Positions 28,987 through 33,918 of a DNA stretch of 44,113 nucleotides are shown here, in pieces. The stretch's first letter is position 1. Each line of letters opens with the position of its first letter. Origin of the DNA: a virus (Duplodnaviria; Heunggongvirae; Uroviricota; Caudoviricetes); IMG/VR virus record IMGVR_UViG_2630968800_000004, one strand, 5' to 3'. The translations under genes were made by a program, and so were the position numbers. A model generated the notes under the pieces. It was not told where the DNA came from, did no database searches, and saw only the letters and a program-made list of their open reading frames with translations.

Positions 28987-30084
28987 TTACACCGGAATAT
29001 TCTCATCGTATCCTGCTTGTTGCGTTTCGTTTTGTGTTTGTGGATCCGGGAATGCATATTCAACGCCTTCCAGTTCAATCCATAGTGCATTACGACCAGC
29101 TTTGATTGTCGGCCAGTCCATACCTTTGATTCTTTCCCATGAGCGGGAGGTGAATGTTTTTTCCAGCAAATCAGCTTTTGCGCGTTTGGCGTCGTTACTG
29201 GTGCCCCCATGGTGCTTGTTGAGCAACTCGATAATTTCATCAAGTGCGATTTCTTTTGCACGCTTTTCTTTTAGCCATGTCGGTGTACCGTCGTTGGCAA
29301 ATAATTCACTGTTATCCCGTGAGGTATCGATGCCGGGGTGTTCACCTCCCAGGTTAAGAGACTCGATATGAGGAAGAAAGTTTTTAAATGTTGGGTTTGA
29401 AAATACCTGTCCATCAATACGGGTGGAGCGATCTTTTAGTATTCTGGCGGTGCGCCACACCTGACCGGTTTCTATGTTCATTTGCTTCTCCATCTGGATC
29501 CGGATGGAGGGTTCATAACCGGTTTCTGTTTCTGCTTTCATTTTTATACCGGTTTTTGCCAACTGGCGTTTGCCATCATCACCTTCGAAAAAGTCATACT
29601 CATATCCTGCACGCCCGCACATAATAATGTGCGCCTGACTGTTAACAAATCGATCGGTAAAGCGTCGCCACTCCTGTTTGAGCCACGCCCAGTCTGAAAA
29701 TTCCAGTCCTCGTTTACGGTTTCGGCGTCTGGCATACTCGTCGCATAATCCGGTCCAGAAGTGACTGATGGAGTCGATGATCATTACGGAACCGCTGCTT
29801 TCCGCTTCATTAATGGCTTCAAGCAGATCAACAAACGAGCGGGTTTTTGCCGTAAATAATTCGATATTTTCCGCATCAAAGCGGGGTTTAACCCAGTCAG
29901 AGCCTGTTTCTGTGTCCAGAAACATTACCGGGCGGTTACCAGCTTCAATTCCCCGTTGCCGCATAAGCATTACCAGACCAATAGCCAGTTCGCTTGCTGT
30001 GTAGGTTTTGCCGTCGCCAGCAAACCCCATAATTCCTGCTTTTAGATAGGCCTGTGTGTTTATTGCTCGTTGAAAAAGCGCCAT
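28987..30084 (-). CDS. P-loop NTPase (RecA-fold/AAA-like), phage-associated, function unknown
   Basis: Walker A GFAGDGKTYTA, Walker-B-like VMIIDSISHFW; 365 aa. Confidence 0.55.
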   Translation of the reverse strand: MALFQRAINTQAYLKAGIMGFAGDGKTYTASELAIGLVMLMRQRGIEAGNRPVMFLDTETGSDWVKPRFDAENIELFTAKTRSFVDLLEAINEAESSGSVMIIDSISHFWTGLCDEYARRRNRKRGLEFSDWAWLKQEWRRFTDRFVNSQAHIIMCGRAGYEYDFFEGDDGKRQLAKTGIKMKAETETGYEPSIRIQMEKQMNIETGQVWRTARILKDRSTRIDGQVFSNPTFKNFLPHIESLNLGGEHPGIDTSRDNSELFANDGTPTWLKEKRAKEIALDEIIELLNKHHGGTSNDAKRAKADLLEKTFTSRSWERIKGMDWPTIKAGRNALWIELEGVEYAFPDPQTQNETQQAGYDENIPV

Positions 30085-30089
30085 AGATT

Positions 30090-30384
30090 TTAGTCCTCCA
30101 AATCAATATCAACCTGGTGGTGGGCAATGGTTTCAGCCATGTACCGGATGTGTTCTGCCATGCGCTCCTGAAACTCAACATCATCATCAAATGCGTGGCT
30201 GATTGCCTGTTTATTGGCACCGTGGCGTTGCAAATGGTCGATGCAGAGCGATTCAAACAGGTGCTGAGGCAGACCTTTTTCCAGGTCGTCCGCCAGTTCC
30301 GTTTCTTTTTCTTCACGAACGATCTGCTGGTAGTGACGAGCCCATGCCATTTCTTCAATACGATCAAAAATCGGATAAGCGCTC
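30090..30384 (-). pseudogene. Hypothetical gene, 5' end removed at IS600 junction
   Basis: ORF reads through into the IS600 terminus (first residues encoded by IS sequence). Confidence 0.4.
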
Positions 30385-30448
30385 TGAGGTAGCCTGAGTT
30401 TAACGGACACTCCTTCCTGAAATAGAATGGCATCAGAAGGAGCTAATA

Positions 30449-30751
30449 ATGAGCAGAAAAACCCAACGTTACTCTAAATAGTTCAAAGCCGAAGCTGTCA
30501 GAACGGTTCTTGAAAATCAACTTTCGATCAGTGAAGGCGCTTCCCGATTATCTCTTCCTGAAGGCACTTTAGGACAATGGGTTACCGCCGCCAGAAAAGG
30601 GCTCGGTACTCCTGGTTCCCGCACGGTGGCTGAACTGGAATCTGAAATTCTGCAACTGCGTAAGGCGTTAAATGAAGCTCGCCTTGAGCGCGATATATTA
30701 AAAAAAGCAACAGCGTATTTTGCACAGGAGTCGCTGAAAAATACGCGTTAA
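30449..30751 (+). pseudogene. IS600 orfA with nonsense mutation (codon 10 GAG to TAG)
   Basis: ACTCTAAATAGTTC versus ACTCTAAAGAGTTC in the other copies. Confidence 0.8.
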
Positions 30752-30786
30752 TCGAACAATGGCGACAACAATTTCCCATTGAAGCG

Positions 30787-31652: not shown

Positions 31653-33077
31653 CTACCTCAAGGCAGCCAGTAATTTGTCTGCATCGACAGGATTTTTGGG
31701 CGGAATGTTTTTCCGGGCTTCATGGAGTTCTGCCCGTAGTTCCTGATATTTCTCATCAACAGAATTTACCTGTGACTGAGCATCCAGCGGCTGCGTGTTC
31801 TGATGATGTTCAGTTGCATCCGGTTCCATTGTTTCAGCCGTTGCCTGTTCATCTGCCATTGCGCCAGATGGCTGCGTTTTTTCTTCATCATCCTGTTTTC
31901 CTTCTTCTGTTACACGTTGCGGCATCGGGGCAGAGGAGCGACCGCAGGCAATATCCACGATTTCCGGATCAGGGTTGGCATGATCGGTTTCAGTCAGTAC
32001 CTTGTTCAGATATTCAGTGACGTGAGCGGGGATGACCTCGATACCAATCGGTGCTTCTTTCACTGACGCAACCACGATGGCGCGGGAATAATCCATCCCG
32101 CCAGGCATGGTGATGAATTTGTCGCGGAAAACAGAAAAGGGCGGTTTATTTTCAGCGATAATTTCCTCGACACGTTTAGCGTGTGCCGGATGAAGGTTAT
32201 AAATGTCCACGTCCATTGAACGAGCCAGTACGCCAGTGGCTACGTCGCGCGCCAGTGACGTCAGATCGTGAACGAAACCTTCGCCGCGATCGGTGAGGTT
32301 CCCGCCGCCAGCATTAGCGCCGGAAGCCGTGCGCGTGATGCGTGAAACACGATTTCCTTTCATCCACTCTTTTGTCAGCAGACCGCGATCGGTGTAGTCT
32401 GCGTCCATGTATGCTTCGAAAAAAGCAGTCATCAGCCCCAGGCTTGAATTGCCTGGATTAGGGAAAACTCTGTCAGTATCACGCACCAGTTTGTGGAGAT
32501 CGCGAATTTCCAGCGGATCGAGCAGGCTGGTTTTGTGGGAAACAGCCAGGGCAGTAACAGCTGGTAGTTCTTCATCCCGAGCAATGTGTAATGCCTGGAG
32601 TTCGTCGCGTGAAACGTGCGTTACTGGTTTTTCGCTGCCGTGTTGCGCAAGCCAGCGAATGGGCAGTTCCTGACCGGAAACTGGCAGGAGCATGTTCTCC
32701 TCAATTTCTGTCATGTCTTCGCCGTTGACGTTGGTATTGTCAGTGCTGGCCGGTTTGTCCTGAACAGAGGGAGAAGATGCGATAAATACCATTGTGATGC
32801 CATCTTCCCCGCCTTTTTCGTAACGGTTGCAGAATTCCGTATCAAATACGCCTTCTGGCGGGAGGTCATCAACAACGGGCAAATTGACGCGAACAGGTTT
32901 TTTAAAGTCATCTTCATCGTAGCCTGCATCGTCAATCGCAACAGCACCACGGGAGATGGCAATGGATAATTTTTTCGCTTCAGCCCAGTAAAAACCGCCT
33001 TTAATACCGAGACGTTTTCTTACTTTGTCATTTTTTGCTTCGTAATACAGTGGGTAAACTTGTTTATCGGTGTTCAT
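31653..33077 (-). CDS. Hypothetical phage-associated protein (474 aa); last codons and stop supplied by IS600-terminus-like sequence
   Basis: Long ORF with acidic/Gln-rich C-terminal tail; stop TAG lies inside the 12-bp IS600 end remnant. Confidence 0.45.
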
Positions 33078-33176
33078 TGTTTTTTAACCTCAACTCAGAT
33101 TAAAATTACTGCGAGTGATGAATAAATGTCCCAGGTTCTTCATTCAGGCCTGCACAGTGTGCAGGCTTTCTTTTTT

Positions 33177-33452
33177 TCAGATTTCACCTTTTAATTTCAT
33201 TGCAATCAGAGTTGCCAGAAATTCGGCTTTTTTTTCTGCGGGCAGATTCTTTCCTATGTGCACCAGACACATTTTTTTTACACCATCGTTAAGTGTTTTA
33301 ACGTTGCCTGATGGACCGTCGATATCAACCACAGTGAATGGGGTTTCTTTATTTTCTGTCTTAATCACGTAGCCAATACGCTTTCCTTCCAGATTAACCT
33401 CGTGAACAATGTCATCAGTAGTTACAACAGTGGCTTCATAACTGGTAATCAT
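33177..33452 (-). CDS. Hypothetical small protein (91 aa)
   Basis: ATG with AAGGAG RBS (MITSYEATVV...). Confidence 0.45.
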   Translation of the reverse strand: MITSYEATVVTTDDIVHEVNLEGKRIGYVIKTENKETPFTVVDIDGPSGNVKTLNDGVKKMCLVHIGKNLPAEKKAEFLATLIAMKLKGEI

Positions 33453-33526
33453 GTTTTTCTCCTTAATTAAGGTTGAGCGAATCCCTGCCATTGCTGGCAT
33501 AAATTCAGTTTCGGATAGTCAGTTAA

Positions 33527-33697
33527 TTAAAGTTCGTGTGCCATCTGGTCTTTTTCGGCACAGATTTCACTACAATATTTTTTCATTTCCGTCGTTGGTA
33601 TAACTCCACGCATGAAATGAAGTGGTCTTGTAATGATTTTGCTTTCTTCAATTTCTTTATTGCAAAGGTGATAAGCACATTTTATTTTCTTAGTCAT
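33527..33697 (-). CDS. Small cysteine-rich (zinc-ribbon-like) protein, 56 aa; not in the ORF track (shorter than 60 aa)
   Basis: Manual translation [56 protein letters not shown]; start overlaps upstream stop (TAATG). Confidence 0.4.
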   Translation of the reverse strand: MTKKIKCAYHLCNKEIEESKIITRPLHFMRGVIPTTEMKKYCSEICAEKDQMAHEL

Positions 33698-33918
33698 TAC
33701 CATGACTCCGCCTTTACAGGTAAACCATCACGACCGAGGAAGACTTTAATCATGCAGTCAGAAATGCATGTTTTTGTAGTCAGGCTACGAATATAAAGTT
33801 TTCGCTTTTTAATATTGTTTGCCGAGGCGATATATGTCCGACCTTCATGAAGAACATAATCGCCAGGAGTCACACACTGACGTGGTATTTCATCAGTTCC
33901 GAAGTGATGAGCAATCAT
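33697..33918 (-). CDS. Hypothetical small protein (73 aa)
   Basis: AAGGAGG RBS upstream of ATG. Confidence 0.45.

Follow-up and report, generated by a model that had tools for sequence, protein, structure and literature searches.

A Rac-family prophage remnant with a kill and recombination operon that includes a Sak4-like ATPase

The 44,113-nucleotide sequence of the IMG/VR virus record IMGVR_UViG_2630968800_000004 (hereafter, the window) contains, at positions 28987-33918, six co-oriented minus-strand open reading frames (ORFs) interrupted by one insertion sequence (IS) and bounded by two others, raising the question of what kind of element this array derives from and whether its products serve replication, recombination or defence. 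An earlier note on this DNA, which gave the coordinates and strand of the array correctly, had regarded it as phage-derived but otherwise uncharacterised, and had been unable to assign it to any of the three. Our analysis indicates, with a probability of about 0.8 for both statements taken together, that the array is the early-left (pL-type) kill and recombination operon of a Rac-family lambdoid prophage in an advanced state of decay, and that the ATPase it encodes is most likely an annealing recombinase. The remnant lies in a host chromosome of Shigella flexneri type.

Gene content of the leftward array

All six minus-strand ORFs match curated protein families and have relatives that are 96–100% identical, showing that they are real genes and not chance ORFs, and curated models put a name to five of the six, the ATPase being the exception. 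By homology the gene set, comprising kilR, ydaE, racC, a recE-family fragment, gam and a Sak4-like AAA_24 ATPase (Table 1), is a host-kill and homologous-recombination module, and the phage origin proposed earlier can be narrowed to the early-left arm of a Rac-like lambdoid prophage at ttcA. In IS-free Escherichia coli relatives, in which ttcA is the Rac attachment site, the gene order beside ttcA is Rha, YdaE-family, hypothetical gene, RecE-family, Gam, AAA ATPase, DUF1187, XisR and IntR, and the pieces of the window are 96–99.7% identical to these relatives by blastn. The segment holding the ATPase and gam is found in 10 of 5,426 complete E. coli genomes at 99.6–99.7% identity.

The first three genes of the array are typical of the Rac early-left region. 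KilR matches the NCBIfam model PRK11354 ("FtsZ inhibitor protein") along its full length (positions 1-73 of 73; 160.9 bits, cut-off 92) and PHROG 294, Kil (E = 3.5e-36); the kilR region is 92.5% identical at the nucleotide level to that of phage Rac-SA53, and the gene is preceded by the Shine-Dalgarno sequence AAGGAGG. YdaE, matched by the NCBIfam model YdaE_coli (87.5 bits, cut-off 35) and PHROG 1520, is the 56-aa protein previously described as a CxxC...CxxC zinc ribbon, but its four conserved cysteines are spaced C-x4-C...C-x3-C and zinc binding is only putative. In the third gene, the match to NCBIfam PRK09790 (203 bits, cut-off 171; PHROG 4778) covers residues 17-107 of the program-called ORF, and a TAAGGAG motif precedes the internal ATG corresponding to Met17, so the racC-like gene is taken to encode 91 aa. 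A GC-rich hairpin with a 10-bp stem, followed by a T-run, is present on the plus strand (33146-33168) between racC and the start codon of the recE-family gene, and would act as a terminator of antisense (rightward) transcription. As had been proposed, good Shine-Dalgarno sequences precede the genes of the array, in five of the six cases; the overlapping stops also claimed are limited to the overlap between kilR and ydaE.

The 474-aa ORF, in which no nameable motif had been seen, is a truncated RecE-family fragment. At 96% identity it matches the first 472 residues of an E. coli RecE-family protein of 665 aa, and it reads 8 nt into IS600, whose end provides the last two codons and the stop (at 31653). 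The ORF matches Pfam Exonuc_VIII (PF06630; 127 bits, cut-off 25, E = 9.1e-37) and positions 1-474 of the 877 in the NCBIfam exodeoxyribonuclease VIII equivalog PRK09709 (E = 2.8e-277), although its 922 bits miss the full-length equivalog cut-off of 1269. What had been reported as an acidic tail of this protein is RecE's acidic linker, severed by IS600. A Pfam search did not find the PDDEXK nuclease domain (DUF3799), which occupies residues 860-1024 of the 1048-aa RecE of Rac-SA53, in either the 474-aa ORF or its intact 665-aa relative, which has the Exonuc_VIII N-terminal region as its only domain. Nuclease-less "RecE-2" proteins have been noted before (Zheng et al., 2025; PMC12315714), and the 665-aa protein, judging by its domain content, corresponds to this class.

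A similar revision applies to gam. The 106-aa ORF called by the program matches Pfam Gam (PF06064) at model positions 2-97 of 98 (184 bits, E = 4.7e-55). Comparison with the intact 98-aa gam of an E. coli O121 relative (locus L005) reveals that the native ATG has been lost: where the relative reads GCGCTCAT, the window has GCGCTC and then TGAGG, the end of IS600. The start codon of the 106-aa ORF is a GTG (30410) inside the IS600 terminal repeat, directly abutted by its Shine-Dalgarno sequence; this GTG is the only in-frame start left to gam, which does not qualify as an intact translatable gene. The gam stop lies 5 nt before the ATPase ATG. Two ORFs that could otherwise be read as novel proteins are hence corrected to an IS-truncated recE-family fragment and a start-less gam.

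The ATPase: family, fold and genomic setting

The last gene of the array encodes a protein with the Walker A motif GFAGDGKT, as had been observed previously. On the Pfam model AAA_24 (Sak4 family) it scores 52.2 bits (gathering score 27), more than the 30.0 bits of the experimentally validated Sak4 of phage HK620. The protein consists of a RecA/Rad51 core (residues ~1-230) with Walker A, Walker B and catalytic Glu, and a conserved helical C-terminal domain of ~110 residues (~233-340) that is structurally unmatched. Its motifs FLDTE59 and IIDS105 resemble FIDAE96 and VVDS of RecA. The earlier note had held that clear homology of both large proteins of the array to well-characterised phage proteins would speak against its view, and such homology was largely found, in the form of the exodeoxyribonuclease VIII model for the one and of AAA_24 together with the RecA/Rad51 fold for the other.

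The ATPase family is large, with 1,975 proteins at E ≤ 1e-5 and 60–75% identity across Enterobacteriaceae, Pseudomonas, Achromobacter, Roseateles and others. Clustering at 50% identity yielded 495 representatives at E < 1e-30, mostly matching over residues 1-340, and the C-terminal part therefore belongs to the family. In an alignment of 69 sequences, with identities down to 36%, the residues K15, G20, G25, K26, E59, G61, W110, K136, R158, E185, E191, K217 and R219 are invariant. The protein matches PHROG 1366 (E = 2.6e-79) and, more weakly, the Sak4-like PHROG 124; a PDB sequence search returned no match at E ≤ 1, and NCBIfam holds no model matching the ATPase or gam. Separately, Candidimonas-type prophages with the same ATPase family (L035, 10064-11851; L036, 4530-6356) encode in the same operon a PAPS-reductase-like protein as well as one of ~600 aa that contains a dATP/dGTP pyrophosphohydrolase domain, which hints at DNA-modification functions.

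The function proposed for the ATPase draws on its genomic setting. In a sister prophage of E. coli R1, bet, exo and ralR (1662 bp) lie between recE-family and gam genes homologous to those of the window (89%) and a homologous DUF1187 gene (91.6%), and it is this slot that the ATPase (1128 bp) occupies in the lineage of the window; the annealase/exonuclease pair is cleanly exchanged, as a cassette, for the ATPase. The UV-inducible Cronobacter phage phiES15 has the order kil, gam, ATPase (84% identity), hypothetical gene, methylase, xis and int. Its 53 features include no annotated Bet, RecT, Erf or exonuclease, and its gene content points to kil-gam-ATPase as the sole recombination-like content and to the ATPase as the sole candidate recombinase of this phage. 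Salmonella prophages have KilR-Gam-ATPase, and the equivalent place in HK620 reads kil-hkaM-sak4-ssb-abc2. In prophages of Achromobacter, the stop of the ATPase gene and the start of a gene for a canonical single-stranded DNA-binding protein (SSB) overlap, a pairing typical of Sak4 (PMC5928155; PMC8093625); no SSB gene is found beside the ATPase in the window, E. coli, Salmonella or phiES15. A related-locus search with a 15-sequence ATPase alignment returned 21 loci. In seven neighbourhoods outside Escherichia, read from the called genes of the encoding contigs because our own ORF listing of high-GC loci was too noisy, the ATPase gene sits in a phage-like early block, usually between repressor and integrase. 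Only 9 of 246 lambdoid Rec modules are without a strand-annealing protein (PMC12315714). Together, the bet-exo slot, the phiES15, Salmonella and HK620 arrangements, the Achromobacter SSB gene and the rarity of such modules argue for the ATPase as a recombinase.

Several observations weigh against this assignment. A comparison of the ATPase family profile with HK620 Sak4 by hhalign gave a weak match confined to the Walker A/B region (probability 17.8%, E = 0.0014), so that the link to Sak4 rests on Pfam and fold and not on pairwise similarity. Sak4 has been defined operationally as core-only and shorter than 290 aa (Lopes et al., 2010; PMC2896510), a size that the ATPase, with 365 aa and an extra domain, exceeds. 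The top structural neighbours of the ATPase include RAD51 paralogues, which are mediators and not annealases; the 365-aa subfamily (PHROG 1366) is labelled "unknown function"; and most ATPase neighbourhoods have no adjacent SSB or nuclease gene. By its features, the ATPase is Sak4-like in core and context and is no strict member of Sak4.

In a different reading the ATPase would be, like a RAD51 paralogue, a recombination mediator or modulator that, once Gam has stopped RecBCD, loads, stabilises or remodels host RecA filaments on phage DNA. We regard this as unlikely, since the family shares its Pfam assignment and fold with Sak4, for which annealing and recA-independent recombineering have been shown and a mediator role has been argued against (PMC5928155), and since the pair that the gene replaces, bet-exo, is an annealase and nuclease working autonomously. 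Considerably less probable is a replication or translocation motor, that is, a DnaB/gp4-like helicase, a helicase loader or a packaging-type NTPase. The most improbable alternative, in our judgement, is that Gam and the ATPase, or the entire array, form a prophage-encoded anti-phage defence or counter-defence cassette. Defence morons are indeed frequent in the early-left and int-proximal regions of prophages, the label "DarB-like antirestriction protein" is attached to some distant AAA_24 homologues, and Sak4-type recombinases are known to be targeted by, or to trigger, Abi systems and SaPI Stl (PMC8093625; PMC11846896); yet none of the six proteins matched the defence models of PADLOC-DB 2.0 at E ≤ 0.01, homologues with a role in recombination or host killing exist for every gene, and the ATPase sits in the bet-exo slot. 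An annealing recombinase hence remains the most likely identity of the ATPase.

Insertion sequences, decay and surroundings of the operon

The earlier note had placed IS600 within the array and IS2 and IS629 at its borders, which the IS ends and junctions bear out (Table 1); the name IS600 was taken from the annotation of a database match. Relative to L005, IS600 replaces ~503 bp of prophage (L005 positions 10419-10921 missing by blastn), a segment that took in the 3' end of the recE-family gene (~180 codons), the gam ATG and the stretch between the two genes. IS629 replaces ~350 bp (L005 positions 8651-9000) with the DUF1187/ydaC gene and the end of xisR, and IS1 (26547-27314) splits intR with a loss of ~422 bp, the two elements having destroyed ydaC, xisR and intR. 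No target duplication was found on IS600, IS629 or IS1, and all three therefore fit IS-mediated deletions. IS2 sits in the last codons of the Rha-family gene, between that gene and kilR. The identical IS arrangement is present in S. flexneri SFBU1023 at 99–99.9% identity, which indicates that it is fixed in a lineage. Two megablast matches to Stx phages were rejected as informative relatives, as they comprise IS629 and IS600 only. In the IS600 copy of the array, orfA has a TAG nonsense codon at position 11 when compared with an intact orfA, and orfB of the adjoining IS629 copy is split into two ORFs. The 44 kb contain five ORFs of exactly the IS600 orfB length (272 aa), one in the copy at 30385-31660, for which alone the identity was checked, and the others at 480, 11633, 18176 and 42763.

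A Rha-like gene does lie upstream on the same strand, as had been pointed out, but it is frameshifted, an intact 279-aa E. coli Rha homologue being split over frames -2 and -3 by tblastn. Homology to the relatives ends ~240 bp upstream of this gene, at 36392, and their immunity region is missing in the window. IS2 separates the array from the upstream promoter region, and IS600 separates gam and the ATPase from kilR-recE. A promoter scan of the minus strand found no sigma-70-like promoter ahead of either kilR or gam and yielded fewer sites than it did on shuffled sequence, so there is no evidence for IS-driven expression. The intact ORFs left are kilR, ydaE, racC and the ATPase. Given the damage by IS2, IS600, IS629 and IS1, the module in the window is predicted not to be functional as a unit, and the most fitting reading of the array is a silent remnant, with these four genes left intact by chance.

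Table 1. Features of the prophage remnant in the window (L005 and L037 are related loci)
Feature	Coordinates	Strand	Description
Rha/Ash-family regulator gene	35315..36153	-	Frameshifted into 210-aa and 97-aa ORFs; Pfam Phage_pRha, Phage_ASH
IS2	33984..35314	-	Simple insertion, 5-bp GCAGC target duplication; InsC/InsD ORFs
kilR	33697..33918	-	Intact, 73 aa; FtsZ-inhibiting host-kill protein of Rac type; opens the array
ydaE	33527..33703	-	58 aa (56 aa from second ATG); start overlaps kilR stop
racC-like gene	33177..33452	-	91 aa from Met17 of a 107-aa program-called ORF (33177-33500); PRK09790
recE-family 5' part	31661..33077	-	Codons 1-472 ("RecE-2", nuclease-less); Exonuc_VIII; 665-aa relative
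IS600 copy	30385..31660	+ (opposite to array)	Terminal inverted repeats TGAGGTAGCCTG and CAGGCTACCTCA; megablast match at query 1486-2759
lambda-type gam	30090..30384	-	Codons 2-98; Pfam Gam; ATG and ribosome-binding site removed by the IS600 event
AAA_24 (Sak4-superfamily) RecA-like ATPase	28987..30084	-	365 aa, intact; Pfam AAA_24, RecA/Rad51 fold
IS629 copy	27661..28966	-	Junctions TGAACCGCCCCGGG...CCCGGGGCGGTTCA; bounds the array
intR and xisR remnants	25806..27660	-	Prophage left end; blastn against L005 and L037; annotation in relatives

The remainder of the window contains further features. A gene for a 571-aa IpaH-type type III secretion effector (38680-40395, minus strand; Pfam NEL E3 ligase, E = 9.5e-77, and LRR_TTSS) is embedded among prophage remnants, and the window is for this reason identified as Shigella chromosome. 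A four-gene sitABCD-like metal ABC transporter (22026-25475, minus strand; ZnuA-type binding protein, ABC ATPase and two ABC-3 permeases) adjoins the truncated integrase end of the prophage, where the E. coli relatives have ttcA. A second lambdoid block on the plus strand (1740-10907) comprises early-right genes (DUF1376/YdaU-like, IstB/DnaC-like, DUF977, DUF1367 and a Q-like DUF1133 antiterminator) and is interrupted by IS2 and IS600 copies, making the window a mosaic of prophage fragments. At 13213-15242 on the plus strand, a cluster of four tRNA genes (Met-CAT, Arg-TCT, Thr-TGT and Gly-TCC) is directly followed by an ORF for a 534-aa tyrosine recombinase whose N-terminus matches DUF6538. 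A 69-aa plus-strand ORF (36868-37077) has a true CxxC...CxxC pattern and no Pfam match; it may be the counterpart of a protein that is annotated at the same position in E. coli R1 as "ECs_2282 family putative zinc-binding protein".

Related systems and proposed role of the module

Elements of this kind are known: the locus is an early-left operon of Rac/lambdoid type, broken by IS elements, whose Rec module combines Gam with a Sak4-type protein. The Rac operon of E. coli K-12 and phage Rac-SA53 (kilR-ydaE-racC-recE-recT-ralR-ydaC-xisR-intR) shares with it the ttcA site, gene order and orientation. The homology to Rac-SA53 covers kilR, ydaE, racC and the first ~470 recE codons (parts at 92–95% nucleotide identity; RecE at 63% amino acid identity overall), and intR and xisR are 95–99% identical between Rac and the window. 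In contrast to Rac, the lineage of the window has no PDDEXK domain in its RecE-family protein and no recT or ralR, with gam and the AAA_24 ATPase in that place and a Rha-family gene upstream, and the copy in the window is broken further by four IS elements. The lambda Red genes (gam-bet-exo) of the E. coli R1 prophage resemble the array in gam (~90% nucleotide identity), the upstream nuclease-less recE-family gene and the downstream DUF1187-xis-int, but bet, exo and ralR stand where the lineage of the window has a single ATPase gene.

Sak4 itself (HK620 HkaL, lactococcal phi31 Sak4 and staphylococcal phage Sak4, PDB 8rc5) is alike in AAA_24, RecA/Rad51 core, Walker A/B and catalytic Glu, and in its position in an early-left Rec module after kil, beside an anti-RecBCD gene; some relatives of the ATPase also have an SSB gene directly downstream. 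Sak4 differs in its size of ~220–245 aa, as against 365 aa with the extra C-terminal helical domain, and in its PHROG assignments (2872 and 124, versus 1366), and the enterobacterial versions of the ATPase have no cognate SSB. The AAA family ATPase and Gam of the inducible phage phiES15 (gp07/gp08) share 84% amino acid identity in the ATPase and the kil-gam-ATPase order, whereas phiES15 has no recE-family gene upstream and has DUF7740 and methyltransferase genes downstream.

In the intact element, leftward transcription from the immunity region would run through the Rha-type regulator into kilR, ydaE and racC, and KilR would block FtsZ and thus stop host division. The recombination module would follow, with the nuclease-less RecE-family protein, Gam and the 365-aa RecA-like ATPase; Gam would plug the host RecBCD nuclease and so shield linear ends, and the excision genes (ydaC-like, xisR and intR) would come last, beside ttcA. 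In this scheme the ATPase would be a long-form Sak4 and the single-strand annealing recombinase of the phage, binding single-stranded DNA in an ATP-dependent manner, pairing complementary strands, and taking the role that Bet (with Exo) or RecT has in sister prophages. Its C-terminal helical domain probably mediates partner contacts, which may be with host SSB, in self-assembly or with a nuclease; this is the least supported step of the scheme.

The window itself matters little, being a dead Rac-type prophage arm in a Shigella chromosome. More tentatively, and at somewhat less than even odds, the ~365-aa "long Sak4" (PHROG 1366) may constitute an unrecognised and unusually conserved class of recombinase that, with only Gam or SSB at its side, replaces Bet plus Exo or RecT plus RecE, its C-terminal domain making those contacts, with a partner or with host SSB, for which core-only Sak4 relies on a dedicated phage SSB. 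If so, a long Sak4 could serve as a compact, single-gene recombineering tool. A large and conserved RecA-like subfamily, labelled to date "AAA family ATPase" or "unknown function", occupies the slot of the lambdoid annealing recombinase, and would, if it has this activity, extend the catalogue of phage recombinases.

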